Below, piece by piece: positions 5,527 to 43,161 of a DNA stretch of 44,992 nucleotides. The position numbers were made by a program, and so were the translations under genes. How positions within the stretch are numbered: the first letter of the stretch is position 1; each line of letters begins with the position of its first letter. The notes beneath the pieces are model-generated. The model was not told where the DNA came from, did not search any database, and worked only from the letters and a program-made list of their open reading frames with translations. This DNA comes from a phage: the sequence record NC_110914.1. One strand, given 5' to 3'.

Positions 5527-6789
5527 TTACTCCGCCACACTCTCGCGCAGCGGTTTCACAGGAAAAACTTTTACCTGCTTAATCATATTGTCCTGTACGT
5601 CGAGAATATCAATATCGTACTCGCCAATACGCACGCGGGTGCCTGCGACAGGGATCTCTTCCAGTGCCTCAAGAATGACGCCATTAACCGTGCGGGCATC
5701 ATCTTCCGGTAGATGCCAGTTAAAGGCTTTGTTGATTTCCCGCACGTTGGCAGTGCCATCAATAATCACCGAACCGTCGTTTTGCGGAGTGACTTCTTCG
5801 GCAAGTGTTGGCGACATCGACGTGGTGAAATCACCAACTATCTCTTCCAGAATATCTTCAACCGTCACCAGCCCCTGAATGTCTCCATATTCGTTGACGA
5901 CCAGGCCGACTTTCTTTTTGTTGCGCTGAAACTTCACCAACTGCGTGCTGAGGGGCGTACCTTCCGGGACAAAATAGATCTCGTCCGCGGCGCGCAGCAT
6001 GGTTTCTTTGGTGAACTCTTTTTTCTCCGACATCAACCGCCAGGCTTCACGTACTCGCAGCATACTGATGGCGTCGTCCAGCGAATCACGGTAGAGCACG
6101 ATGCGCCCGTGAGGTGAGTGGGATAGTTGGCGCAGAATCGATTTCCAGTCATCGTTGATATCAATACCGATAATTTCACTGCGCGGCACCATGATGTCAT
6201 CAACGGTCATCTTTTCCAGATCGAGCACAGACAGCAGCATATCCTGATTGCGACGGGAAATTTGTGAGCGCGACTCATGCACGATAGTGCGCAACTCTTC
6301 TTTGCTCAAAGAGCCGCTAACCACGATATCGGTTTTGATACCCATCATGCGCATCAGCATACGGGTGATAGCATTCAGCAACCAGACCAGCGGCATCATC
6401 AAAATTTGCAGCGGAGCCAGCAGAAAACTACTCGGATAAGCGACTTTTTCCGGGTACAGCGCGGCAATGGTTTTCGGCAATACCTCAGCAAAAACCAGTA
6501 CGACAAAAGTCAGCACACCAGTCGCAATTGCCACGCCCGCATCGCCGTACAAACGCATCCCAACAATAGTGCCGAGCGCGGAGGCAAGAATATTGACCAG
6601 GTTATTGCCGATTAATACCAGGCTTATCAGGCGGTCTGGCTTACGCAGCAATTTTTCGACGCGCTTGGCCGAGCGATTACCCTGTTTCGCCATATGTCGC
6701 AGACGATAGCGGTTGAGGGTCATCATTCCGGTTTCGGACCCGGAAAAATAGGCTGAAATGACCACCATGATGATCAGAATAATGATCAA
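5527..6789 (-). CDS. yfjD: CorC/HlyC-family inner membrane transporter (DUF21-CBS-CorC domains) YfjD
   Basis: 420-aa ORF with N-terminal TM region and CBS/CorC-like C-terminus; ORF-track start is a TTG. The annotated start may lie about 8 codons upstream (LEHISTTT...), start uncertain. Confidence 0.85.
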   Translation of the reverse strand: MIIILIIMVVISAYFSGSETGMMTLNRYRLRHMAKQGNRSAKRVEKLLRKPDRLISLVLIGNNLVNILASALGTIVGMRLYGDAGVAIATGVLTFVVLVFAEVLPKTIAALYPEKVAYPSSFLLAPLQILMMPLVWLLNAITRMLMRMMGIKTDIVVSGSLSKEELRTIVHESRSQISRRNQDMLLSVLDLEKMTVDDIMVPRSEIIGIDINDDWKSILRQLSHSPHGRIVLYRDSLDDAISMLRVREAWRLMSEKKEFTKETMLRAADEIYFVPEGTPLSTQLVKFQRNKKKVGLVVNEYGDIQGLVTVEDILEEIVGDFTTSMSPTLAEEVTPQNDGSVIIDGTANVREINKAFNWHLPEDDARTVNGVILEALEEIPVAGTRVRIGEYDIDILDVQDNMIKQVKVFPVKPLRESVAE

Positions 6790-22281: not shown

Positions 22282-22629
22282 TTAACTCAGTGAAACAGTG
22301 GTTGAAACTGACGCACCGGTATCGGTACGCATCCCGGTAATATCGACATACATCTCGCCAGCGTCGCCGGCCTCAAAGCTGATGGATGTAAGCCTGATGC
22401 GCGGTTCCCACTTCTGGATAGCCGAATAGCAAGCCACCATAATTTGCAGCCTGAGCGCCGGGTTTTGCGGCATATCAATCAGCGCCGACAGAAGCGAGCC
22501 ATATTCACGACGCATCACCCGCGAGCCGACCGGCGTCAGCAGAATATCGCGCATGCTCTGGCTGATATGCTCGGTATCGCTGATGCCAAGGCCGGTATTT
22601 CGGTTCATCCCCTGATAGCGCGCCGTCAT
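22282..22629 (-). CDS. W: Baseplate protein gpW
   Basis: 115-aa ORF at the P2 gpW position. Confidence 0.85.
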   Translation of the reverse strand: MTARYQGMNRNTGLGISDTEHISQSMRDILLTPVGSRVMRREYGSLLSALIDMPQNPALRLQIMVACYSAIQKWEPRIRLTSISFEAGDAGEMYVDITGMRTDTGASVSTTVSLS

Positions 22630-23267
22630 AACGGTGCCCCCGTTTGCCCGCCGCTGTCGCCCGGGTGTTTATGGGTGTGGAGTACCTTGCCATTAGACGA
22701 CAGTGACCCGCCGGTATGTTCGATATTGCCGCTCATCTTGCCGCCTTTCTGCACCTCAAGCGTCGCCGTCGTTAGCTTATTGGTGCAAATCACCTCCGGG
22801 GTGTCGAGGGTGATACTGGTCGAGGCTTTCACCAGTACCAGCGGTACGGTTGCGGTGATGGACTCCGATGCCGTCACGTCGGCCGTTTTTATGCCGCTGA
22901 CCGTCAGCGCGCCGGTTTCGGGCTCGTACTCAATGACCGCACCATCAGGGAAAGCCACATGCCACGCATCCGCCGAGGCAGACGGGGCGGGGTTATCGTC
23001 GGAGAAAATACCCGGCAGCACGAAAGCGGTATCAAGCTCGCCACCGATTGCCAGCAGCAGAACCTGCTCACCGACCGAGGGAGCCCACCACGTCCGCGAA
23101 CGACCGGCGCGGGTGGTCAGCCAGTTCAGCCATGTAGTCTGGATCCCGCCGCTTTGTACGCGGCACAGCCCCTGCACAGTATCGACCTCAGTCACCACGC
23201 CTGAGCGGATGAGGTTGCGAATGGCACGTGCTAACTCTTGAATGGTGTTTAATGTGTTCATGAACAA
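22626..23267 (-). CDS. V: Baseplate spike protein gpV
   Basis: 213-aa ORF at the P2 gpV position. Confidence 0.85.
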   Translation of the reverse strand: MFMNTLNTIQELARAIRNLIRSGVVTEVDTVQGLCRVQSGGIQTTWLNWLTTRAGRSRTWWAPSVGEQVLLLAIGGELDTAFVLPGIFSDDNPAPSASADAWHVAFPDGAVIEYEPETGALTVSGIKTADVTASESITATVPLVLVKASTSITLDTPEVICTNKLTTATLEVQKGGKMSGNIEHTGGSLSSNGKVLHTHKHPGDSGGQTGAPL

Positions 23268-23398
23268 AGAATGCCGATTGTTAAAGCCAAGAGCAAAACG
23301 ATTCAGCTGTATGCTCTTCTACACAATTCGGTGTGCATTCATGTATCATTTGAGTGTTGACTCATTCGAAAATCACACAAAACATATGGCAGGTAGTA

Positions 23399-24235
23399 AT
23401 GAAAAGAACTTCATCTTTTAGGCGTACAATAAGCAATATGAAATATATTATAGGTATCTTTTTTTTATACTCCGGGCTTATAGTAGGGTTGTCTGTTTAT
23501 AATGATAACTACAACTCAAAATTCATGGAGAATTTTCTTGTTAATGCAAATTCTTCAATTTTAGACTTTCTTGTTTTGGGTGTGATTCTTTACTATTTTG
23601 AAAATAAAAGGCAAAATAAAGATGCTATTCACGAACTAATTGAAGATCTTGAAAATCTGGCAAAGCATTCTTCTGCAGAACTGAATATTATGAAGATAAA
23701 AATCATACGTCAGTTAAATGCTAAAGGAATATATAACATTCAAGTTCCAAGGATTGAACTTGATAAAATGTCCACTATCAAATATTTACATTTTAAAGAC
23801 GCTGACTTAACCGGCTTGAATATGAGCGAATCATACATTAGAGATTGTTCTTTCGATAATTGCACAATTCAAGCTCTAAATATTACAGGCAATAGAGTTA
23901 AGAGTGTTAAATTCAAAAACTGCAAGCTAAGAAATATTAAGGCATTTAATACATGTTTTCAAAATGTCACTTTCGAAAACTGCAGTTTTGAAGGGGGGTA
24001 TTTTACAGATAGCGAAATGAAAAGCTGCATATTAAAAGGATGTGATTTTAAATCCGTTACTTATGAAGGGGCTAACATGCGGAATGCAAATCTATTAAAT
24101 TCAATTAACATTAGCGTTAAAGAACTTGTTAAAGCAAAAAACATAGATTATTTAATTTGTGATGAGCAAATTAAAAATGAAATAAGAAAGGAAAACCCAG
24201 CAATAAAAATATCGAGAGGAATAATACGAGGTTAG
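23399..24235 (+). CDS. Membrane-anchored pentapeptide-repeat protein (cargo gene between V and S)
   Basis: AT-rich ORF opposite to flanking late genes. N-terminal hydrophobic segments (YIIGIFFLYSGLIVGLSVY; LDFLVLGVILYYF), then pentapeptide-like repeats (CSFDNCTIQALNITGNRVKSVKFKNCKLRNIKAFNTCFQNVTFENCSFEGGYF...). ORF track starts at GTG 23354; an ATG at about 23399 (MKRTSSFRR...) is more plausible. Confidence 0.6.
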   Translation: MKRTSSFRRTISNMKYIIGIFFLYSGLIVGLSVYNDNYNSKFMENFLVNANSSILDFLVLGVILYYFENKRQNKDAIHELIEDLENLAKHSSAELNIMKIKIIRQLNAKGIYNIQVPRIELDKMSTIKYLHFKDADLTGLNMSESYIRDCSFDNCTIQALNITGNRVKSVKFKNCKLRNIKAFNTCFQNVTFENCSFEGGYFTDSEMKSCILKGCDFKSVTYEGANMRNANLLNSINISVKELVKAKNIDYLICDEQIKNEIRKENPAIKISRGIIRG

Positions 24236-24325: not shown

Positions 24326-24781
24326 TCAATGGCGTTGACATAAAGCATCCATAATTAAACTCTCAACTTTTTGTAAGTCTGATGAAGAGTATCCGAGCAA
24401 CGGTCGCGCCTCGTACTGCACATCCCGGCTGTTGCGGTTTGGCCGGTCTTTTAGGCCGTACTGATGCACCCGCGCCATGCGCTGCACCTTGCCGGTAAAC
24501 TCCACCACCGCCGCACTGTCGCTGCCTTTGGCTTTCATAAAGCGACTGGTGCGCAGTTTGGCGAACATTTCACGTTTAATCCGACCTTTCTTGCTCCGCA
24601 CCGGCTGGCGCTTTCGTGCCGCATACGGGGTGCCGTCGGGTGCCTGCTGGCGCTTGATACGCTGTTGCTGACTGGTACGCAGCTTTTTCGCAACCTCAAC
24701 CGCCATTTGCCGACGTGCCGCCGGTGACAGGCTGGCAATCAGACCGGCAAGGCGTTCCTGCAGCGCGGTTAATTCACTCAT
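24326..24781 (-). CDS. S: Tail completion protein gpS
   Basis: 151-aa ORF at the P2 gpS position. Confidence 0.8.
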   Translation of the reverse strand: MSELTALQERLAGLIASLSPAARRQMAVEVAKKLRTSQQQRIKRQQAPDGTPYAARKRQPVRSKKGRIKREMFAKLRTSRFMKAKGSDSAAVVEFTGKVQRMARVHQYGLKDRPNRNSRDVQYEARPLLGYSSSDLQKVESLIMDALCQRH

Positions 24782-30266: not shown

Positions 30267-32036
30267 ATGACCATTTCCACCGATACAACCTTGTTGCATG
30301 ACCCGCGACGGCAGGCATCGCTGCTTTACTGGCAGGGTTTTTCCGTGCCACAGATTGCCGAAATGCTGCAGGTCAAGCGCCCGACCGTGCAGAGCTGGAA
30401 GCAGCGTGACGGCTGGGACGGCATCGCGCCGATTTCCCGCGTTGAAAGCAGCCTTGAGGCTAGGCTGATTCAGCTCATCGCCAAGCCGCAAAAGACAGGG
30501 GGTGATTTCAAAGAGATTGACCTGCTCGGACGGCAGATTGAACGGTTGGCGCGAGTCAACCGCTACAGCCAGACCGGCAACGAAGCCGACCTTAACCCCA
30601 ACGTCGCCAACCGCAACAAAGGGGAGCGCAAAAAGCCGAAAAAGAATTTTTTCAGCGACGAGGCTATCGATAAACTAGAGGAATTATTTTTCGACCAGTC
30701 TTTCGAGTACCAGTTGCAGTGGTACCGCGCAGGACTGGAGCACCGTATTCGTGACATTCTCAAATCCCGCCAGATTGGCGCGACATTCTATTTCTCCCGC
30801 GAGGCACTGCTGCGCGCACTCAAAACCGGCCATAACCAGATATTTTTATCAGCCAGTAAAACGCAGGCTTACGTGTTCCGCGAATACATCATCCAGTTTG
30901 CGCGACTGGTCGACGTTGACCTGACTGGCGACCCGATTGTCATCGGTAACAACGGCGCAAAACTGATTTTTCTCGGTACCAATTCCAACACCGCGCAGAG
31001 CCATAACGGCGATCTGTATGTCGATGAAATATTCTGGATCCCGAATTTTCAGAAACTGCGCAAAGTCGCCTCGGGCATGGCCTCGCAAAAGCACCTGCGC
31101 TCGACCTATTTTTCGACACCTTCCACGCTGGCGCACGGCGCTTACCCCTTCTGGTCTGGCGAGCTGTTCAACAAGGGGCGCAGCCGGATTGCCGACCGCA
31201 TCGAAATCGACATCAGTCACAGCGCGCTCGCCGGTGGCCAGCTCTGCGACGATGGCCAGTGGCGGCAGATTGTCACCATTGAGGACGCCCTTGCGGGTGG
31301 CTGCACCCTGTTCGACCTCGACCAGCTCAAACGCGAAAACAGTGATGAGGACTTTAAGAACCTGTTTATGTGCGAGTTTGTCGACGATAAAGCGTCGGTA
31401 TTCCCGTTCGAGGAGCTGCAGCGCTGCATGGTCGATGTAATGGAGGAATGGGAGGACTTTGCCCCGTTCGCCGACCATCCGTTCGGCTCTCGTCCTGTCT
31501 GGATTGGCTACGACCCGTCACACACCGGCGACAGTGCCGGGTGCGTCGTGCTCGCGCCGCCGGTGGTCTCTGGTGGCAAGTTCCGCATGCTGGAGCGCCA
31601 CCAGTGGAAGGGCATGGATTTTGCAGCACAGGCAGAGGGCATCCGCAAGCTGACCGAGAAATACAACGTCGAATACATCGGCATTGACGCAACCGGCCTC
31701 GGTCTCGGCGTGTTCCAGCTGGTGCGCTCATTTTACCCGGCGGCACGCGGCATCCGTTACACACCTGAAATGAAAACCGCAATGGTACTCAAGGCGAAAG
31801 ACACCATTCGCCGTGGCTGTCTGGAGTACGACGCCGGAGCAACCGACGTCACGCAGTCGTTTATGTCCATCCGCAAAACCATGACCAGCAGCGGGCGCAG
31901 CGCCACCTATGAGGCCAGCCGCACCGAGGAAGCCAGCCACGCCGATATCGCATGGGCGACCATGCACGCCCTGTTAAACGAACCGCTTTCTGCCGGTAGC
32001 GGCATGCAGCCTAAATCTATTCTGGAGTTCAACTAA
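30267..32036 (+). CDS. P: Terminase large (ATPase) subunit gpP
   Basis: 589-aa ORF (P2 gpP about 590 aa) at the expected position. Confidence 0.9.
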   Translation: MTISTDTTLLHDPRRQASLLYWQGFSVPQIAEMLQVKRPTVQSWKQRDGWDGIAPISRVESSLEARLIQLIAKPQKTGGDFKEIDLLGRQIERLARVNRYSQTGNEADLNPNVANRNKGERKKPKKNFFSDEAIDKLEELFFDQSFEYQLQWYRAGLEHRIRDILKSRQIGATFYFSREALLRALKTGHNQIFLSASKTQAYVFREYIIQFARLVDVDLTGDPIVIGNNGAKLIFLGTNSNTAQSHNGDLYVDEIFWIPNFQKLRKVASGMASQKHLRSTYFSTPSTLAHGAYPFWSGELFNKGRSRIADRIEIDISHSALAGGQLCDDGQWRQIVTIEDALAGGCTLFDLDQLKRENSDEDFKNLFMCEFVDDKASVFPFEELQRCMVDVMEEWEDFAPFADHPFGSRPVWIGYDPSHTGDSAGCVVLAPPVVSGGKFRMLERHQWKGMDFAAQAEGIRKLTEKYNVEYIGIDATGLGLGVFQLVRSFYPAARGIRYTPEMKTAMVLKAKDTIRRGCLEYDAGATDVTQSFMSIRKTMTSSGRSATYEASRTEEASHADIAWATMHALLNEPLSAGSGMQPKSILEFN

Positions 32037-32037
32037 A

Positions 32038-33084
32038 ATGGGTAAACAAAAATCCCGTAAAGCCAACGCACAAAAGGCCAGCAAACCACAACAACTGACC
32101 GCCAGCGCACCGCCAAAAACGACAGCGTTCACCTTCGGCGAGCCGGTGCCGGTGCTCGATAAGCGCGACATTCTGGATTACGTCGAGTGCATCAGTAACG
32201 GCAAATGGTACGAGCCGCCGGTCAGCTTCTCAGGGCTGGCAAAGAGCCTGCGCTCTGCCGTGCATCACAGCTCGCCAATTTATGTTAAGCGTAACGTGCT
32301 CGCGAGCACCTACATTCCGCACCCGTTGTTATCCCGTCAGGATTTCAGCCGCTTTGCGCTCGATTATCTGGTGTTCGGTAACGCCTTTCTTGAGCAGCGC
32401 CACAGCGTCACCGGCCAGTTAATCAAACTGCTGGCCTCGCCAGCCAAATACACCCGACGCGGAGTCGACGATTCGATTTTCTGGTTTGTGGAAAACTTCA
32501 CCCAGCCGCACGAGTTCGCGCCTGATACCGTGTTTCACCTGCTGGAGCCCGACATTAATCAGGAGATTTACGGCCTGCCCGAATATCTCAGCGCGCTAAA
32601 TTCCGCCTGGCTGAATGAATCCGCGACGCTGTTCCGCCGCAAGTATTATCAGAACGGCGCGCACGCGGGTTACATCATGTATGTGACTGACCCGGCGCAG
32701 AGCGCGACCGACGTCGAATCGCTGCGCGAGGCGATGCGCAACTCAAAAGGGCTCGGCAACTTTAAGAACCTGTTTTTCTACGCTCCCGGCGGAAAACCGG
32801 ACGGCATCAAAATCGTGCCACTGAGCGAGGTCGCCACAAAGGATGACTTTTTCAACATCAAGAAGGCCAGTGCCGCCGATCTGATGGACGCGCACCGCGT
32901 ACCGTTCCAGCTCATGGGCGGCAAGCCCGAGAATATCGGTTCACTCGGTGATGTTGAGAAGGTGGCAAAGGTATTTGTGCGCAACGAGCTGTCGCCGCTA
33001 CAGGACCGGTTCAGGGAGGTAAATGACTGGCTCGGCATGGAGGTCATCAGATTCAAAGAGTACACCCTCGACAACCCAGAATAA
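32038..33084 (+). CDS. Q: Portal protein gpQ
   Basis: 348-aa ORF directly after P; P2 gpQ-like size and position. Confidence 0.9.
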   Translation: MGKQKSRKANAQKASKPQQLTASAPPKTTAFTFGEPVPVLDKRDILDYVECISNGKWYEPPVSFSGLAKSLRSAVHHSSPIYVKRNVLASTYIPHPLLSRQDFSRFALDYLVFGNAFLEQRHSVTGQLIKLLASPAKYTRRGVDDSIFWFVENFTQPHEFAPDTVFHLLEPDINQEIYGLPEYLSALNSAWLNESATLFRRKYYQNGAHAGYIMYVTDPAQSATDVESLREAMRNSKGLGNFKNLFFYAPGGKPDGIKIVPLSEVATKDDFFNIKKASAADLMDAHRVPFQLMGGKPENIGSLGDVEKVAKVFVRNELSPLQDRFREVNDWLGMEVIRFKEYTLDNPE

Positions 33085-33161
33085 CTTAGGCCGCCACAAT
33101 CTCTGCGCTCATTATTGAAGATGCAATCTGCGAAAGCTATAGTGCATCGAATATCAAAACA

Positions 33162-34166
33162 ATGGGCGCGGAGATTAATATTTTGGAAACTGATTTTAAA
33201 ATAACCCTCGAAGGTTTCGCTACTGAGCAAGAAGCAAATAATATCGGTAATTTCACACTAGAAGCTATCCGAGCTTTAACAAAAAATCTCAATCTTGATA
33301 TCTCCAAATTAAAATGCGTGATTGTTTCCTATAACTTCAGTGAAGCTCTTCAAAAGGTAACATCCTCTTACCAACACAAATCCCCTAGTTCATTTACCAA
33401 TAGCAAACAGGGCGCAGCCGTCGGGCAGTTAGTAACAAAAATTGGCAATGATGGGCTATGTGAAGAATATACCCTTGTGCTATCGATTGATTTTTTTGTT
33501 GAGCTTTTCAATGATGGTAGCTTCTTAAAACTGAAAGAAGAAGGATACCTCGCAGTCATCCATCGCATTCACCATGAATTAGTGCACGTACATGAAAAAA
33601 ACTTACTAACATGCTTAGCCCAAAACTTTACAGTCAACGAGTATGGTAGCGCGCTTCTTATCTCAGCCACGCGTGCATGGTCTGAATATCTCGCTAATTA
33701 CATGTCTTCGGGGTCTGCCCCTCAAGAAACTATCGATTTATTTTTAGAGAATCTTGACACTGTTGTAAATGAAGTATCTGACGAGATTGAAAAACTCATC
33801 TGGGGTTATAAGTACGGTAATATTTCTCTGAATGACATGTATCTCGAAGTAAAAAAACGTATCAGGCTAATCATCAACTCTTATGCTTATGCGATGGGTT
33901 ATGTCCATTCTCTAAACATCAATATTAAAGAATACGATCCAAAGCTATCCCTTACACTATCCAACTCAAAGATAAGATATCAATTATCAGAATTAGGCAT
34001 TGCTTTTCAGAATCTTTATGGGAAGTTTAATGACCAGCACATTACAGGTTTTGGTGATTTTCGGGAGATAACAATAATCATTGATGAAATATTCAAGCAG
34101 TTTGGGCTTGTTTTAGAGTGTCCCGATTGGTCTGGCGACGGTGAACTCTACATACATGTAAATTAG
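33162..34166 (+). CDS. Hypothetical HExxH-motif protein (cargo gene between portal and cos)
   Basis: 334-aa AT-rich ORF with HRIHHELVHVHE (HExxH) and a Glu about 20 residues downstream (NEYG), suggestive of a zinc metallopeptidase fold. No recognised homologue from memory. Confidence 0.55.
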   Translation: MGAEINILETDFKITLEGFATEQEANNIGNFTLEAIRALTKNLNLDISKLKCVIVSYNFSEALQKVTSSYQHKSPSSFTNSKQGAAVGQLVTKIGNDGLCEEYTLVLSIDFFVELFNDGSFLKLKEEGYLAVIHRIHHELVHVHEKNLLTCLAQNFTVNEYGSALLISATRAWSEYLANYMSSGSAPQETIDLFLENLDTVVNEVSDEIEKLIWGYKYGNISLNDMYLEVKKRIRLIINSYAYAMGYVHSLNINIKEYDPKLSLTLSNSKIRYQLSELGIAFQNLYGKFNDQHITGFGDFREITIIIDEIFKQFGLVLECPDWSGDGELYIHVN

Positions 34167-34386
34167 TTTAATCATAGTAGAAACATAATTAGCAGTTTGA
34201 ATCCTGCCACTCCTGTAAAGCCGCTGCTCCTGGTGGCTTTTCCATGCACACCACCATCACGCATCAGATGCGTCTCACGCGCACGAACACACCCGACCAC
34301 CAACGAACCAGCAGCGACCACGACAGCGCCATCACGACGCGCTCAGAGGATAATTTTTATTATTACGCATCACTGCTGGCGCGCAA

Positions 34387-34405
34387 TGCTTTCCCCGCCA
34401 CGCCT
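34387..34405. other. Candidate cos site (19-nt cohesive end)
   Basis: Reverse complement GGCGTGGCGGGGAAAGCAT is 17/19 identical to the remembered P2 cohesive end GGCGAGGCGGGGAAAGCAC, in a GC-rich non-coding gap pointing toward Q as in P2. Confidence 0.6.
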
Positions 34406-34641
34406 GCCCGCTTTATGGGGCGGTTTTAATGCAGTTGCATGACCACTCTGGATCCCCGCCAGCTCTTGCGGCGCACGTACAAAACGGGTAACCCCGGCGC
34501 ATGCAGAACCATGCACCTGTTGCATGCACAGCTTATTTATTGATAAATCACCTTAAATTTACAAAAATTACGGACATTGATTCTTTCCAAACATGATAGC
34601 CTCTCGATAATTATCGAGCCTATTTTTGAACGGAGAAAGAT

Positions 34642-35583
34642 ATGCAAGGTGAAGTTGACGAACAGCAACCCAATGAGATTATGTCGGAGTTTGGATACTA
34701 TCCAGTAGAAGTTAACATTGAGACTGAACAATTTTCTTTGCTTACTTTACCTGGTCTCAATGAGAAAGTGGAGCGTGTTAATAATGATAAAAACGTTGTG
34801 AAAGGTTGGATATACCCTGGAAACCAAGATGTATATAACCTTAATGGTGGCATATCCACAATGCCTTATAGTCACCGAGTATTCAGTATGCCCAAAACGC
34901 ACACACTAAAATTAAAAAATACATCCTCGTTAGAAACTCTCAACTTTATTGTGTGGTGCCTTTCTTTTTTCAAGGGAATAAGATTGACAACCACTGACGC
35001 TGGTTTTTTAGATGCAACCACTATCAAGCCCACTAAGTTAACCGACTTTATTCTCGTTGGATGCTCTGAAAAAGAAGTCATAGAACTGGCTCTTAATTAT
35101 ATAAATGGCAAACATAAGGATGCGCACTCCCCCAAAAGAATTGCGGCAGTGGTGCATGCACTATTCTTATCTCAAAACCCACAATACCTTTCTTTTGAAA
35201 AATTCCAGTACCTTTACATGGCACTTGATGGGTGCTTTGCTTTGTCGTGGGCTGAGCATGACAAGGCTCCTGATAAAAAACCGCCAAATCATTACAAGCG
35301 ATTAAAGTGGATGTGCAAAATTTATGGGTTATCAATCCCCACATGGGTGTCAGGTAAAAAAAACATTTCTGGCATCCGCAATGATAATTTTCATGAGGCT
35401 ATTTTTTTTGGTCAACCGCTTGGTTTCTCAAGTGTTAACAACAGTCAATATGGTAACGATATATTGCTGCAAATGCAGGCACTGGTATGTCGCCTATTAG
35501 CGGCAATACTGTCGGTTAATGATTGCAGTTATCTCAAATCTTCGGTCAACTCACGAGATTACCATTCATTAAAAATAAATTAA
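34642..35583 (+). CDS. Hypothetical protein with R-x4-H motif (cargo gene at the P2 old/tin position)
   Basis: 313-aa AT-rich ORF with its own AT-rich upstream region and a GGAG-type RBS; contains ...GIRNDNFHEAIFF... (R-x4-H, possibly HEPN-like). No recognised homologue from memory. Confidence 0.55.
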   Translation: MQGEVDEQQPNEIMSEFGYYPVEVNIETEQFSLLTLPGLNEKVERVNNDKNVVKGWIYPGNQDVYNLNGGISTMPYSHRVFSMPKTHTLKLKNTSSLETLNFIVWCLSFFKGIRLTTTDAGFLDATTIKPTKLTDFILVGCSEKEVIELALNYINGKHKDAHSPKRIAAVVHALFLSQNPQYLSFEKFQYLYMALDGCFALSWAEHDKAPDKKPPNHYKRLKWMCKIYGLSIPTWVSGKKNISGIRNDNFHEAIFFGQPLGFSSVNNSQYGNDILLQMQALVCRLLAAILSVNDCSYLKSSVNSRDYHSLKIN

Positions 35584-35657
35584 TGCTAACGCCTCGCGGT
35601 GCTCGTTGTTCAACCCCCGCCAGTACTGAAAGCGAGTTTCAGAACCGGCGGCGTTTG

Positions 35658-35867
35658 CTATCGTCGACGTGGTGGTGGTGCGTATTGTTTCGACCTGCTG
35701 ATGCTATCCAGCTTGCCGTAATTATCCCTGACTATTTCGGCACACCCGACCAGCTCTGCGGGTGTCAAATTCTCATTGACCATTATCTGCTGCAAACGAT
35801 GAACGATGGCCATCAGTTTGATGCTTTTAGTTTTGTGTTGCGGTATTTCACCTGGTAGTCGATGCAT
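35658..35867 (-). CDS. Small hypothetical protein (weak call)
   Basis: 69-aa ORF between two ~50-bp direct repeats; protein-like composition but no supporting motif. Confidence 0.25.
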   Translation of the reverse strand: MHRLPGEIPQHKTKSIKLMAIVHRLQQIMVNENLTPAELVGCAEIVRDNYGKLDSISRSKQYAPPPRRR

Positions 35868-36066
35868 ATTATCACCCTCAATGAATTTTAATCAGTGCCG
35901 TCAAAACGCCACTATAAAACCATCTCAGGTCATGCCTCATTAATCATGGGCGTGTCATCAATAGCACATTGAGAAATTTTGAAAGGCAGGACTTAAGCCT
36001 CGTGGGCTCGTTACTCAACCCCGCCGACGCAAAAAGCTAGTTTTTGCGCCAGCACGGTTATTATGT

Positions 36067-36297
36067 TTAACGCCAGCTATCGTCTTCCCAAATCTCTTGT
36101 AATATGCTGCCTAATGTTTCTCTGTCCGCCTCTTTATCGAATCCGATAGCCTCTACACCAGTCATTGACCCTTTCTTAACGTTAACTTTTGTTGCAGGAA
36201 AAACGCATTGTACTCGATGTGTTATTTCATTTTGAAAAGCATCAATGATCTGTTGCCCTAATTTTTGCTCTTTATCCAACGTGATATTGATTCTCAT
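36067..36297 (-). CDS. DinI-like protein (C-terminal-domain equivalent of 186 Tum)
   Basis: 76-aa ORF MRINITLDKEQ...RVQCVFPATKVNVKKGS...ETLGSILQEIWEDDSWR resembling remembered DinI; LexA box upstream of the two-ORF unit. Confidence 0.75.
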   Translation of the reverse strand: MRINITLDKEQKLGQQIIDAFQNEITHRVQCVFPATKVNVKKGSMTGVEAIGFDKEADRETLGSILQEIWEDDSWR

Positions 36298-36596: not shown

Positions 36597-38819
36597 TTAC
36601 TCATGTATTGGTTTTGATGCTTCAGCCATCGCCGCAACACGATTAAGGATTTTCCGAGCTTTAGCTTCATGCGATGGTGCTGCGGAAAATATTTCTCCTT
36701 TGGCCGTTCCGCGTAGCCATTTACCATCAAAACAACTTTTACCACCGGCCATCAGGTGCAGGGCTTCGCCCCGGCTGATATTAATGCCGGTTGTCAGATG
36801 TATCTCATCGATAGTTTTAGCTATAGCTGCGTTTTGCTCATCCGTTCCGTGGATGAATTTTCGCCGTGCTGCTGGCTTTTGCTTCCTGAGTCGGTTGGTC
36901 AATTCTCGTCTTTCACGCCGACTCAGTGGTTTTGTTAAATCCAGTATCGGTGGATCGCTTTCGCTTCCCGTACAGTTATTGACAGAACTCCGAGGGACGG
37001 CTTTGCCGTCCTGAAGGTCAACGGCCAAATCAACAGCACGCTTCGGAACAATCTTCCACTGAGTGAGCCGGGTTAAAATCGGGCTTCCTGCACCTATGGA
37101 GGAATCGTAGACCCCCTTAATACATACCGTTTCCTCACCGTACTGATTAAGCTCGGTACGCGGTTCATACAGTGTGCGCACCTGTAAATCATCGCGACGG
37201 ACAAACGGCCCACCCTGAGCATTAACATAACCAGCCCAGTCACCAGCGTCGGCGGCATCATGGACGGCGGCAAACTCAACGCTCAGACCGTGCGCGGTTT
37301 CGGTATCAGCGAGGCGACGCAACTCACGGTAAACCGTCACCGGCGCACCACCAATAAACTGAAACTGACGGATGTGCCAGCGCGCAGCCCATGCTGAAAC
37401 GGCGGGGGCTGTCTCTTTCAGCAGCTCACCGCTTTCATCATCGGTTTCACCATCGAGAGCATAACCGTCGATATTTTTTGAAATGTATTTAGCAACATAG
37501 CCGGTTGCGCTGCCTTTCTCCGGGTCAATGGACTCCGCGTGGAAACGTGCTTTTTTGGATTTATCGCTTTTCAGTTCGTGGCGGTCTTCTTTCCATGCGT
37601 ATTTACGGACGATGGAGCGAACATATTCAACATCTTCCGGCAGCATGAACATCAGCATGTGCCAGTGTGGAGTGCCGTCGTGATGGGGCTCGGCGACACG
37701 AATACCGAAAATACGGACATCTTCCCGATGTAGTTTGGCACGGATACGCGCCCAGATACCGGTTAGATAGTTTTGCGTGTCAGCCGGGCTGGCACCGCTC
37801 CATTTGCTGTTACGGTAACCGGCTTTAGTCGTGGCGTGATATTTTGACGGCGCGGTTAGAGTGTAAAACTCACCGACATAACCGAGCTCATTACAGATGT
37901 TTTCAAACCCACGAATGCGGGTCATGAGCTCACAGCGGCGAATCGCAGGGTTAGCAACTGAGCCATCATATTTTTCAATTAGGCTGATACGGTTGCCGTC
38001 TTCGTCTTCGAGATCCAGACCTTTGAGAAATTCACGAGTGCGGCGCTTTTGTTCACGCCAGTCAGTCACGCAGTTTTTACTCGCGTAAGTGTTTTTTTTC
38101 TTACTGACGTTGCCGACTGCAATTTGCAGGTGTTCGCGCCACGTAGCTGCTACACGGCGCAAACGACCGCGCCACCACCCATCGTTAAACATTTTGGCGA
38201 TAGCCGGTGCGATTTCATCCGCACCGACATATTTTTTTTCAACCCGCTCCCAATGTGGTGGGATAACGTTGAATTGGAGGGAAATAAAGCCAGCACGAAT
38301 ATACCAGGTGTACAGCGTTTTAAGCTCGCCGAATCCGTGGTCATTAATGTTGGCAAGTTCACCACGAATGAAATTAGCAATATCAGCGGCCAACAGGTCA
38401 ACATCAGCGCGCGACATGTCCGGGAGACGGTTATATCGGGCGACCATATTAACCATGCGTGACGACAGATATTGCATTTGCTGAGTATCAAAATGACTTC
38501 CAAAAACAGCGGTTGATACCTTGCTGTTGATACCAGCGCATTCGTATTTTTTTGCGACCAGTTCAAGACGCGGCAATGCCTTTTTGCAGAAGCTGATTAA
38601 AAATGCATTGGCTCGTTGACTACCCTGATTTTGCTCCAGCACCGCAGCAGTGCGATAAACATCTAACCGCACGCAGTCGGGCTGGAGAGAAAGCACCTTT
38701 TTTGCATGCAGCAAAGCCGCGAACATACGGTCGCGGCGATGCTGTTGCTCATAAGTAAGGTATGGGCTGGAGATTGCCGACCGTGGGACGTTCCACGGAT
38801 AAGCGAATTGAACAGCCAA
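36597..38819 (-). CDS. A: Replication initiation protein gpA (rolling-circle nickase)
   Basis: 740-aa ORF (P2 gpA about 761 aa) at the expected position downstream of the early genes. Confidence 0.85.
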   Translation of the reverse strand: MAVQFAYPWNVPRSAISSPYLTYEQQHRRDRMFAALLHAKKVLSLQPDCVRLDVYRTAAVLEQNQGSQRANAFLISFCKKALPRLELVAKKYECAGINSKVSTAVFGSHFDTQQMQYLSSRMVNMVARYNRLPDMSRADVDLLAADIANFIRGELANINDHGFGELKTLYTWYIRAGFISLQFNVIPPHWERVEKKYVGADEIAPAIAKMFNDGWWRGRLRRVAATWREHLQIAVGNVSKKKNTYASKNCVTDWREQKRRTREFLKGLDLEDEDGNRISLIEKYDGSVANPAIRRCELMTRIRGFENICNELGYVGEFYTLTAPSKYHATTKAGYRNSKWSGASPADTQNYLTGIWARIRAKLHREDVRIFGIRVAEPHHDGTPHWHMLMFMLPEDVEYVRSIVRKYAWKEDRHELKSDKSKKARFHAESIDPEKGSATGYVAKYISKNIDGYALDGETDDESGELLKETAPAVSAWAARWHIRQFQFIGGAPVTVYRELRRLADTETAHGLSVEFAAVHDAADAGDWAGYVNAQGGPFVRRDDLQVRTLYEPRTELNQYGEETVCIKGVYDSSIGAGSPILTRLTQWKIVPKRAVDLAVDLQDGKAVPRSSVNNCTGSESDPPILDLTKPLSRRERRELTNRLRKQKPAARRKFIHGTDEQNAAIAKTIDEIHLTTGINISRGEALHLMAGGKSCFDGKWLRGTAKGEIFSAAPSHEAKARKILNRVAAMAEASKPIHE

Positions 38820-40881: not shown

Positions 40882-41742
40882 ATGAGTTCTGAGCTTGATG
40901 TTCAGTGGCGTGTTAGTGCAACGAACGGCGTATTGGAACGCTTAATGTCAGCCTATGGGGTCAAGATGCAAAAGGATTTGGCTGACCTGCTAGGTATCGC
41001 TAAACACAGCGTTAGCGGCTGGGTTCAGCGTGATGCAATACCTGGCAATGTCATAGTTAGGTGTTGTCTTGACACGGGAGCTGATATCAATTGGCTTGTA
41101 AATGGAGAGCTTGCAAATGCAAATCACGAGCGAGCCAGTTGCAAGTTAAAAGGCAAAGAGCTTTATGACGAGATTATGACGAATGGTGGTAAAACCGTTT
41201 TGCGTAGGATTCTTGATGCGTATGGCTTTACCATGCAAAAGGAGCTCGGTGATTTGCTCGGCATTTCCTCTGGCACAATTAGCACATGGGTAAGGCGAGA
41301 TTTTTTCCCTGGTGATGTTGTTGTTACATGCGCTCTTGATACCGATACGTCACTGGAATGGTTAGCAACAGGCAAGGGGCAAATGCGAGCTAACAGGGAA
41401 GATGTCACATCTGGTTTTTCTATTAAAAAATCTCGTCTTGAATCTGGTGAGCTTAAGGATGCAGGAACGTGGCATCCTGACCCCTCAATGATTCCTTCTA
41501 ACTCAGGGGAATTGATTTTTGTTGACGGTGTAGCTGCCTCTTGGCTTGTCGACTGTTCTGCTTCGAATATAAGTAATGGTCGCTGGTTAATTGATATCGA
41601 CGGCGCTCTTGATGTTTTTGATGTAATTCGTTTACCTGGTGGAAAAGTCAGGTTGTCAAATAAGTCTGCTGAGTTTGAATGCAACATTACCGACATTACG
41701 CCTGCCGGGGTTGTAGTTTTCACATTGGAAAAACACGTATAA
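40882..41742 (+). CDS. cI: CI-type immunity repressor with tandemly duplicated N-terminal HTH domain
   Basis: 286-aa ORF divergent from the early operon; two related N-terminal segments (...LERLMSAYGVKMQKDLADLLGIAKHSVSGWVQRDAIPGNVIVRCCLDTGADINWLVNGE and ...LRRILDAYGFTMQKELGDLLGISSGTISTWVRRDFFPGDVVVTCALDTDTSLEWLATGK). No LexA-like Ser/Lys cleavage motif seen. Confidence 0.7.
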   Translation: MSSELDVQWRVSATNGVLERLMSAYGVKMQKDLADLLGIAKHSVSGWVQRDAIPGNVIVRCCLDTGADINWLVNGELANANHERASCKLKGKELYDEIMTNGGKTVLRRILDAYGFTMQKELGDLLGISSGTISTWVRRDFFPGDVVVTCALDTDTSLEWLATGKGQMRANREDVTSGFSIKKSRLESGELKDAGTWHPDPSMIPSNSGELIFVDGVAASWLVDCSASNISNGRWLIDIDGALDVFDVIRLPGGKVRLSNKSAEFECNITDITPAGVVVFTLEKHV

Positions 41743-42111: not shown

Positions 42112-43161
42112 ATGACTGTAAGTAAGCAAAAAAATGGCAAATGGTTATGCGAGCTCTATCCAAATGGTCGAGAAGGGCGGCGTATACGTCGGCAATTCAA
42201 TACCAAAGGTGAGGCCGAGGCATTCGAAGCATTTACCAAAAGCGAGAGTGAAGATAAGCCGTGGCTTGGCAAGAAAGAAGACCGCCGACGCTTAAGCGAG
42301 ATTATTCAGCTTTGGCACAATTTGCACGGTCAAGCGTTAGTCGCCAGTAAGTCGAGGTTAGCAAAGCTTCAAATCGTATGTAATGGGCTTGGTGACCCGA
42401 TTGCATCTCGCCTTACCGCGAAAGACTGGGCTCATTATCGTGACCGTCGATTACGTGGTGAAATAGACAACGGTTATCATAAAGACCCCTCGAAATGGAT
42501 CGCCAAACCTATAACCGTCAATCGCGAACAACAATACCTAGAAGCAGTGTTTAATGAGCTCCGCCGGTTAGGGGAGTGGAGCCTACCCAATCCACTTGAT
42601 GGGATCCGAGTATTCAAAGAGGCTGAGAAAGAAATGTCCTGGCTAACTTTGTCTCAGCTCCCGGAGCTGTTTCGAGCCTGCGAGCAATACGGCAAAGAAG
42701 ACCTCACCATGATTGTTAAGGTGTGCCTTGCAACCGGCGCTCGATGGGGGGAAGCGGAGAGATTGACCCGCCCTCAACTTTCTCCATATAAACTGACGTT
42801 CACCAAAACCAAAGGTAAGAAGAATCGCACAGTTCCTATTCCTAAATGGCTGTACGACGAGTTGTCCGTACGTCAAGGCAGAATGTTTAAACCCTGCTAT
42901 CAGGAGTTTAAGAAGATGCTCAAACTAACGAATATTGAATTGACGGAAGGGCAGAAGACGCACGTTTTGCGTCATACTTTTGGTGCGCATTTTATGATGA
43001 ACGGCGGGAATATACTGGTACTGCAGAAAATTCTCGGGCATGCCAATATTCGAGAAACAATGAAGTATGCACACTTTGCTCCTGACCACCTTGAACAAGC
43101 TGTAACCCTTAATCCGTTATCGCTGTATGTTGGCGACAATATGGCGGCAGAGGTTGCATAA
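42112..43161 (+). CDS. int: Tyrosine integrase
   Basis: 349-aa ORF with C-terminal catalytic region (...HVLRHTFGAHFMMNGGNILVLQKILGHANIRETMKYAHFAPDHL...) at the prophage edge next to yfiB. Confidence 0.9.
   Translation: MTVSKQKNGKWLCELYPNGREGRRIRRQFNTKGEAEAFEAFTKSESEDKPWLGKKEDRRRLSEIIQLWHNLHGQALVASKSRLAKLQIVCNGLGDPIASRLTAKDWAHYRDRRLRGEIDNGYHKDPSKWIAKPITVNREQQYLEAVFNELRRLGEWSLPNPLDGIRVFKEAEKEMSWLTLSQLPELFRACEQYGKEDLTMIVKVCLATGARWGEAERLTRPQLSPYKLTFTKTKGKKNRTVPIPKWLYDELSVRQGRMFKPCYQEFKKMLKLTNIELTEGQKTHVLRHTFGAHFMMNGGNILVLQKILGHANIRETMKYAHFAPDHLEQAVTLNPLSLYVGDNMAAEVA

Follow-up and report, generated by a model that had tools for sequence, protein, structure and literature searches.

ORF313, a predicted sensor-plus-HEPN protein in the old/tin slot of a P2-type prophage, is a strong candidate for a new family of single-protein anti-phage defences

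The 44,992-nucleotide sequence record NC_110914.1 (the window; all coordinates are positions in this whole stretch) is an Escherichia coli prophage of the P2/186 type, with a CI repressor gene (40882–41742), an integrase gene (42112–43161) and tail genes S and V. Beside its cos region lies ORF313, an open reading frame (ORF) that occupies the slot held in phage P2 by old and tin. We describe its product as a strong candidate for a new family of anti-phage defences made up of a single protein. The C-terminal domain of the protein very probably has the HEPN fold, and ORF313 is predicted, with good probability, to be an active ribonuclease (RNase). The fuller interpretation, which we favour on balance, is that ORF313 would act as an anti-phage abortive-infection RNase in which a sensor domain is coupled to a HEPN nuclease.

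Predicted fold and conserved residues of ORF313

An earlier reading of the DNA, referred to here as the original prediction, had taken a single R-x4-H motif (IRNDNFHEA) as weak evidence for a HEPN-type RNase, and had proposed structure prediction and profile searches as checks. The motif lies at residues 246–251 and is the sole R-x4-H in ORF313. The caution of the original prediction was justified, as 20% of shuffled ORF313 proteins contain such a motif by chance; the R[NDH]x3H form is found in 3%.

Conservation was assessed in 56 homologues sharing 24–50% identity with ORF313. Only six alignment columns were invariant (G112, E186, R246, H251, G261 and R284), and N247 and E252 were near-invariant, at 95% and 91%, respectively. 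The motif occurred in 49 sequence variants, every one of which kept the arginine and the histidine. Because R246 and H251 are invariant, N247 and E252 nearly so, and the R...H pair is present in 49 of 49 variants, the alignment identifies the R-x4-H motif as the most conserved feature of the family.

The family itself is broad. Homologues formed 398 clusters at 90% identity, and a profile search of the 50%-identity representatives retrieved 655 clusters at E≤1e-3, of which 446 reached E≤1e-10. Full-length matches were mostly about 290–330 amino acids long and aligned end to end. Members were found in Enterobacterales, Aeromonas, Pseudomonas, Acinetobacter and Stenotrophomonas, and on plasmids in Burkholderia and Bradyrhizobium.

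A first AlphaFold model, built with 36 sequences, was mediocre around the motif. With the divergent 56-sequence alignment, a second model reached a mean predicted local distance difference test (pLDDT) score of 93.3 and a predicted template modelling (pTM) score of 0.91, with no segment below 50. This confident model fits a HEPN fold in which R246 and H251 end helix 3, so for the fold the proposed structural check came out in favour of the original prediction. In the model an N-terminal α/β domain is followed by a linker helix (residues 143–155) and by C-terminal helices at residues 163–176, 184–206, 217–227, 242–252 and 271–289. The domains and residues of interest are:

34669–35061, plus strand: N-terminal α/β domain (residues 10–140), a putative sensor or regulatory domain
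35122–35541, plus strand: C-terminal domain of predicted HEPN fold (residues 161–300), with helix 1 at 163–176, helix 2 at 184–206, an insert at 207–241, helix 3 at 242–252 and helix 4 at 271–289
35197–35199, plus strand: codon of E186, an acidic residue at the start of helix 2, invariant in the 56 sequences
35377–35397, plus strand: codons of R246-N-D-N-F-H251-E252, the predicted catalytic RNxxxHE motif at the end of helix 3
35491–35493, plus strand: codon of R284, an invariant arginine in helix 4 with a putative active-site or RNA-binding role

HEPN domains are characterized by a four-helix core, an insert between helices 2 and 3 and an Rx4-6H motif that ends helix 3, together with a polar residue (N, D or H) right after the arginine and an acidic residue in helix 2, typically as Ex3[KR] (Anantharaman et al., PMC3710099). 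The C-terminal domain of ORF313 is predicted to form an up-down four-helix core with the insert 207–241 between helices 2 and 3. R246...H251, invariant in the 56 sequences, stands at the C-terminal end of the helix 242–252, and the residue following the arginine is the polar N247 in 95% of members. The invariant E186 opens helix 2, but the local sequence E-K-F-Q-Y differs from the Ex3[KR] form. By fold and motif ORF313 belongs to the HEPN superfamily, yet it belongs to no named defence family.

The N-terminal domain had no convincing structural neighbour in the PDB, and its consensus was without a Pfam match.

Some further resemblances were seen in the C-terminal half. Helix 1 of the HEPN domain contains a second motif, R166-x5-H172 (RIAAVVH, residues 166–172, window positions 35137–35157), whose R and H reach 90% conservation or more in close relatives but stay below 85% in the divergent set. 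Residues 243–283 (window positions 35368–35490) weakly resemble the N-terminus of E. coli ribonucleotide reductase R2 (NrdB), ISGIRNDNFHEAIFFGQPL... This match (E about 0.01; 0.35 for the stretch) and another to a ribose/galactose isomerase (E 0.005) were rejected as chance-level, with the R and H not preserved; for NrdB it is this lack of the R and H that makes a chance resemblance probable. The C-terminal consensus (amino acids 28–132 of 156) weakly matched positions 15–114 of the 116 in Pfam PF17419 (MauJ) at E 0.044, almost the whole profile; no documented link between MauJ and HEPN was found.

A variable cassette at the P2 old/tin position

The original prediction of an AT-rich 313-amino-acid gene at the old/tin position was borne out: ORF313 lies on the plus strand in the slot between cos and gene A, encodes the IRNDNFHEA sequence and has a G+C content of 0.386. 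By comparison, the cassette defined below has 0.377, the window as a whole 0.512, and the terminase and portal genes 0.565. The start of ORF313 is unambiguous because an in-frame stop at 34627 and a GGAG at 34632–34635 precede the ATG at 34642. The relevant features are:

34231–34404, no strand assigned: cos region, which is context outside the cassette, 85–89% identical to positions 1–175 of 186, PSP3, SEN1 and EtG, the annotated left cohesive end
34530–35584, plus strand: variable cargo cassette of 1,055 bp, an AT-rich leader plus a single gene, bounded by homology breakpoints against prophages without ORF313 (G+C 0.377)
34632–34635, plus strand: Shine-Dalgarno sequence GGAG, 6 nucleotides 5′ of the ORF313 ATG, annotated as the ribosome-binding site for ORF313 in AM157369
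34642–35583, plus strand: ORF313 coding sequence, 313 amino acids plus stop, RefSeq WP_001622299.1 ('hypothetical protein')

Genes in this region are ordered terminase gene P (30267–32036), portal gene Q (32038–33084), ORF334 (33162–34166), the cos region and ORF313, followed by a 69-amino-acid ORF on the opposite strand, a DinI-like gene (36067–36297; Pfam E 1.7e-17) and replication gene A (36597–38819). The old/tin slot is the published P2 defence hotspot #1 (PMC9519451, PMC9122126). ORF313 occupies this slot, as a variable gene between portal/cos and gene A that is missing from related prophages.

The limits of the cassette could be placed exactly. Two 186-type prophages without ORF313 (E. 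coli FDAARGOS_1253 and TW10598) share about 99% identity with the window up to position 34529, and homology restarts at 35585, one base past the ORF313 stop codon; the cassette therefore spans 34530–35584. In its place these prophages hold 457 bp with a 64-amino-acid ORF on the opposite strand. Sharp presence/absence boundaries at 34529/34530 and 35584/35585, and a slot common to four divergent E. coli alleles, confirm the earlier proposal that ORF313 is cargo of the old/tin hotspot.

Among 5,426 complete E. coli genomes, 93 (1.7%) carry the cassette, at 78–100% DNA identity, always in the chromosome and almost always as a single copy, and 408 match some part of the larger region 33100–36000. 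The four E. coli alleles (100, 92.5, 83.5 and 78.9% DNA identity) all show the order portal, cos, ORF313 homologue, other cargo, gene A. Their co-cargo varies, being either a 226-amino-acid ORF with DUF2158 or a 199-amino-acid ORF with an ImmA/IrrE peptidase. The 79%-identity allele WP_001161722 is regularly accompanied by the ImmA/IrrE (Peptidase_M78) gene and the 199-amino-acid hypothetical gene on the opposite strand; as one Acinetobacter homologue also has a Peptidase_M78 neighbour, this association may be a coincidence or a loose link.

In phages ORF313 was found in 6 records, all of them temperate P2-like Peduoviridae (of E. coli, Yersinia and Salmonella), and was always the terminal gene beside cos. 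It matched phrog_5937 (function unknown) at 5.5e-197 and no other PHROGs family. The ORF313 of P2-EC67, reportedly deposited by Odegrip et al. in 2006, is 90% identical to that of the window.

Genomic context of homologues

About 14 genomic contexts of homologues were sampled. They were overwhelmingly mobile and rich in defence genes. No neighbour was common to them, and the homologue was always solitary, without an antitoxin.

In Providencia, an integrase island at smpB holds DUF3800, the homologue, AbiH and a TIR protein; at a second locus a type I restriction–modification system and GmrSD_C adjoin the homologue, and a third contains PIN_12, IS91, the homologue and AbiH. Integrase islands of P. 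aeruginosa carry a small helix-turn-helix (HTH) gene, the homologue, a resolvase, an HNH gene and a SEFIR/TIR/NACHT protein. A further P. aeruginosa island, resembling an integrative and conjugative element (ICE), contains DUF932, ParB and a Gabija pair 3 kb from the homologue. The trio of HTH gene, homologue and resolvase recurs in Pseudomonas sp. HLMP with differing other cargo.

Elsewhere the homologue lies at the integrase end of an ICE with a type IV secretion system (Ectopseudomonas), in a Tn7-like element (Stenotrophomonas), or in an island with HNH, SNase and DNA methylase genes (Buttiauxella). In Acinetobacter guillouiae it is inserted on the opposite strand of an unrelated prophage, with the capsid and portal genes on either side and CHAT and AbiEi genes nearby, and in Acinetobacter seifertii it lies beside Peptidase_M78 and a Cytotoxic-domain gene. 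Plasmids of four genera also carry homologues.

The HTH gene of the Pseudomonas islands encodes a 73-amino-acid HTH_31 (XRE-type) protein and stands 50–300 bp upstream of the homologue, with the resolvase downstream (loci L019–L021, at 7729–7950 in L019, and L030, at 6478–6699). It is not in the P2 cassette. The trio is kept between islands of different cargo, and the HTH_31 gene could be a local regulator.

Comparison with known systems

Family members had been catalogued before. System #11 of the 169 P2 hotspot systems of Rousset et al. 2022 (PMC9122126, Table S5B) occurs at 218 of 18,150 loci, with a blank Pfam field and no note. It is the family of ORF313, its representative sequence (MQGKVDEQQSNDIEAEFGYYP...RNENFHEA...) being an allele. 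Table S5A of the same study lists WP_001622299, the exact protein of the window, along with WP_001161722, WP_032179103 and WP_001161210, as 'hypothetical'. The System #11 sequence is absent from its table of cloned and tested systems (PMC9122126). System #11 is a catalogue entry there, with no fold, motif or function assigned. The 'Putative HEPN' system that was tested in that work from a P2 locus (pFR103) proved to be a different protein, their System #13, with DUF4209. Accession and peptide searches of the Vassallo et al. and DefensePredictor supplements did not find the family, and such searches of a full-text library likewise found no paper that mentions it. According to a 2026 survey, P2-hotspot genes of unknown function are still largely untested.

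ApeA, HepS and DS-11 provide precedents, by analogy, for solitary HEPN defence. ApeA is a protein of about 580 amino acids, almost all α-helical, with N, Mid and split-HEPN domains; it forms decamers or dodecamers and is ligand-gated (Gao et al. 2020; bioRxiv 10.64898/2026.01.26.701840). Like ApeA, ORF313 is a single protein with an N-terminal region, a HEPN domain at its C terminus and no partner gene, and we propose for it the ligand gating that has been shown for ApeA. In contrast to ApeA, ORF313 has only 313 amino acids, an α/β N-terminal domain and no Mid domain. The ApeA models of Pfam (PF18739, HEPN_Apea) and PADLOC did not match ORF313, and HEPN_Apea reached E 0.15 in one of the 56 members.

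HepS of the Salmonella prophage Gifsy-1 is a prophage-borne, solitary and standalone HEPN protein of less than 250 amino acids (PMC13043305). ORF313 exceeds this size: HepS has one domain, whereas the 313 residues of ORF313 include a 140-amino-acid N-terminal domain. In the LT2 Gifsy-1 record, STM2620 (RNPAFH at residue 44) was considered as HepS and rejected as a different protein; no ORF there has R100 and H105.

Other defences that join a sensor to HEPN are DS-11 (CBS-HEPN), Csm6 (CARF-HEPN), AbiA and AbiV. The N-terminal domain of ORF313 differs from these in being neither CBS, CARF nor polymerase, with no Pfam or PDB match. Minimal HEPN toxins of the HepT/MNT type (7ae2, 5yep, 8xdj) comprise about 130–140 amino acids and are neutralised by an adjacent nucleotidyltransferase antitoxin. 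ORF313, in contrast, has an extra domain, and no sampled context contains a nucleotidyltransferase neighbour.

P2 Old is an ATPase plus TOPRIM nuclease. ORF313 and the P2 Old/Tin genes share the slot beside cos, the character of AT-rich cargo with its own promoter (a putative one in ORF313) and, in P2 biology, the setting of a lysogen that excludes other phages. In sequence and fold, however, ORF313 is unrelated to Old. It is not Old-like because it has no Walker A or B motif and no Pfam match to an ATPase or TOPRIM domain, in agreement with the original prediction, which had noted the absence of a Walker motif.

Proposed mechanism and alternative explanations

We propose that the lysogen would express ORF313 from the cassette's own AT-rich leader. 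The protein would be inactive by default, since it is accompanied by neither an antitoxin nor a partner gene. A competing phage that infects the lysogen would supply a trigger, and the N-terminal domain, the variable helix 2–3 insert or both would sense it. Pairing of HEPN domains could then assemble a composite RNase site, independent of metal, from R246, N247, H251 and E252, with E186 and R284 in support. On the model of ApeA, HepS, PrrC and RnlA, the RNA cut would most plausibly be tRNA anticodon loops or mRNA, and its cleavage would arrest the cell before the invader's cycle is completed, as in abortive infection.

The nature of the trigger can be approached from sequence conservation. Identity in the N-terminal and HEPN domains is 0.81 versus 0.75 among P2-borne alleles and 0.56 versus 0.56 family-wide. 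Most variable are the helix 2–3 insert, at 0.61, and the linker, at 0.69. Such a pattern is easier to reconcile with a conserved ligand (for example a nucleic-acid fragment or small molecule) than with a fast-evolving phage protein, although to name such a ligand as the trigger is speculation. Equally speculative is the idea that, if a protein is sensed, the insert and linker would be its specificity surface. Most far-reaching, and in our estimate doubtful, is the possibility that ORF313 founds a widespread new immune family (hundreds of clusters in Gamma-, Beta- and Alphaproteobacteria) in which an N-terminal domain of new fold, conserved to the same degree as the nuclease, senses a conserved small molecule or nucleic-acid fragment derived from infection, in place of a variable phage protein, and allosterically activates the HEPN RNase.

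Several observations weigh against the reading of ORF313 as a sensor-plus-HEPN defence RNase. The Pfam, NCBIfam and PADLOC libraries were scanned with ORF313, 36 close and 56 divergent relatives, and family consensus sequences, and the profile searches suggested with the original prediction (Pfam Abi/HEPN, PADLOC) were all negative. No curated profile for HEPN, Abi or other defence proteins in Pfam, NCBIfam or PADLOC was matched significantly by ORF313, the 92 relatives or the family consensus. ORF313 had no match among the 5,027 models of PADLOC-DB v2, and the 56 divergent relatives gave just three unrelated single-member PADLOC matches (E 0.02–0.05). Faint Pfam matches to HEPN_RiboL-PSP (E 0.074) and HEPN_Apea (E 0.15) were limited to one member each, and the automatic UniProt name of member A0A3A8EY04, 'Apea-like HEPN domain-containing protein', was not reproduced by the Pfam scan. 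A Foldseek search of the PDB with the first model returned nothing at E <0.2, and sequence and profile searches of the PDB, run with ORF313 itself and with profiles of its full length and of its C-terminal part, retrieved no HEPN protein. Some homologues lie in ordinary chromosomal sites, for example in Aeromonas. Promoter-like matches upstream of ORF313 showed no enrichment relative to shuffled sequences (11 found versus 7.7 ± 3.3). Finally, the N-terminal domain is conserved to at least the same degree as the nuclease, which is unlike what a fast-evolving sensor of phage proteins would show.

A C-terminal half that is no HEPN domain at all, but a generic helical bundle made HEPN-like by convergence, whose conserved R and H serve another chemistry, is in our estimate very unlikely. 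Ranked above this, though still improbable, is a HEPN-like protein that does not act as a catalyst. Its four-helix domain would bind a ligand or regulate, like MtlR and the C-terminal domains of nucleotidyltransferases, and it would play some part in lysogenic conversion. Non-catalytic HEPN lineages typically lose the Rx4-6H motif (PMC3710099), whereas the ORF313 family keeps its R and H invariant and conserves N247, E252 and E186 throughout.

If the domain is catalytic, it might still act for a different beneficiary. An active HEPN toxin could serve the mobile element, either by stabilising it or making the cell addicted to it, or by attacking rival plasmids, ICEs or satellites, without a specific response to lytic phages. 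We think this unlikely, though less so than the other alternatives: the contexts sampled show no antitoxin or conserved neighbour, the genes found nearby are repeatedly bona fide anti-phage genes, and a constitutive solitary toxin would be lethal, which favours trigger-dependent activation. The gene could also benefit the phage itself, as an RNase or counter-defence factor that, while P2/186 develops or is maintained as a prophage, processes or destroys RNAs of the host or of defences, or nucleotide signals. ORF313 is phage-encoded and adjoins cos, and HEPN nucleases take diverse RNA substrates, as this explanation would have it. However, most P2/186-type prophages do without ORF313 (93 of 5,426 E. 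coli genomes carry it, against 408 that have the flanks), just 6 phage records contain it, all temperate and P2-like, and homologues occur mostly in bacterial islands, ICEs and plasmids near defence genes rather than in phage genomes. We therefore regard a phage-beneficial role as quite unlikely, and an anti-phage RNase remains our preferred interpretation of ORF313.

Significance

A substantial part of E. coli's immune landscape consists of cargo in P2 hotspots (PMC9519451), and many frequent entries of this cargo are still 'hypothetical'. The kind of system proposed here, a solitary sensor-plus-HEPN nuclease for abortive infection that is carried as prophage hotspot cargo, is already known, as is the family in the form of an unannotated catalogue entry. 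New are the assignment of a HEPN domain with predicted catalytic residues, the recognition of a conserved N-terminal domain that has no known relatives, the precise ends of the cassette, and the wide spread of the family with its defence-linked context. The system that ranks 11th by frequency in the P2 hotspot catalogue of Rousset et al. thereby gains a testable identity, namely a predicted catalytic domain with the residues R246, H251, E186 and R284. It also gains defined cassette ends and a conserved N-terminal domain as a candidate new sensor module.

If validated, ORF313 would represent a compact 313-amino-acid sensor-plus-HEPN defence that every current annotation tool misses, and would fill gaps in the PADLOC, DefenseFinder and Pfam models for hundreds of protein clusters. 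It would also provide, beside ApeA, HepS and DS-11, another system for asking how solitary HEPN nucleases stay silent and are switched on. A ligand-sensing N-terminal domain, if true, would be a second and structurally independent solution to the ligand-gated logic of ApeA. New HEPN defences appear regularly, so ORF313 is a well-founded candidate more than a surprise; the upside lies in its N-terminal domain and trigger.

Sequence features flanking ORF313

The following features flank the gene:

34540–34568, plus strand: second promoter-like site from the consensus scan
34584–34611, plus strand: promoter-like site TTTCCA, 16 nucleotides, GATAAT, matching 9 of 12 positions in a consensus scan; putative function
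34603–34618, no strand assigned: perfect 16-nucleotide palindrome CTCGATAATTATCGAG, overlapping the -10-like hexamer GATAAT
35611–35657, no strand assigned: inverted repeat with 21-nucleotide arms (81% complementary), in a conserved junction of about 75 bp just 3′ of the ORF313 stop

The original prediction had given ORF313 its own promoter-like AT-rich leader with a small palindrome. The AT-rich leader and the palindrome are both present, the latter larger than had been stated, and neither promoter nor palindrome has statistical support. The region upstream of ORF313 is 80–90% conserved in P2-EC67 and 720R8, and in both the palindrome is imperfect, with two central mismatches. Because there is no excess over shuffled sequences and the palindrome is only partly conserved, palindrome and promoter are listed here as features only, the palindrome being a possible operator.

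The element of about 75 bp at 35585–35660, which holds the inverted repeat, has a weaker copy at 35997–36090 and recurs at module boundaries in related prophages (5888–5963 and 6294–6367 in locus L009). Possible roles are a shared terminator or a recombination junction that aids cargo swapping. Examined as a terminator, the inverted repeat itself had a folding energy equal to that of shuffled sequences (z = -0.02).

Other cargo and neighbouring genes in the window

A second AT-rich cargo gene, ORF334 (33162–34166, plus strand; G+C content 0.376), separates the portal gene from cos. Its family (phrog_11743) is unannotated and has 78 homologues, with an invariant block H134/H137/H138-E139-x-x-H142...E145 that corresponds to an HExxH-type metallopeptidase signature. 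ORF334 was considered as a partner of ORF313 and rejected: it lies on the other side of cos and, because it occurs without ORF313 in related prophages, is independent cargo.

The 69-amino-acid ORF (35658–35867, minus strand; phrog_11386, function unknown) converges on ORF313. As it is present in prophages without ORF313, it is part of the conserved backbone and lies outside the cassette.

At 23354–24235 (plus strand), a 293-amino-acid ORF with a local G+C content of about 0.30 forms an opposite-strand insertion between tail genes S (24326–24781) and V (22626–23267). It encodes pentapeptide repeats (Pfam 1.9e-16) with a weak SLATT-like N-terminus (PADLOC RTasSLATT, 6e-5), and is probably accessory cargo at the P2 orf30 position.

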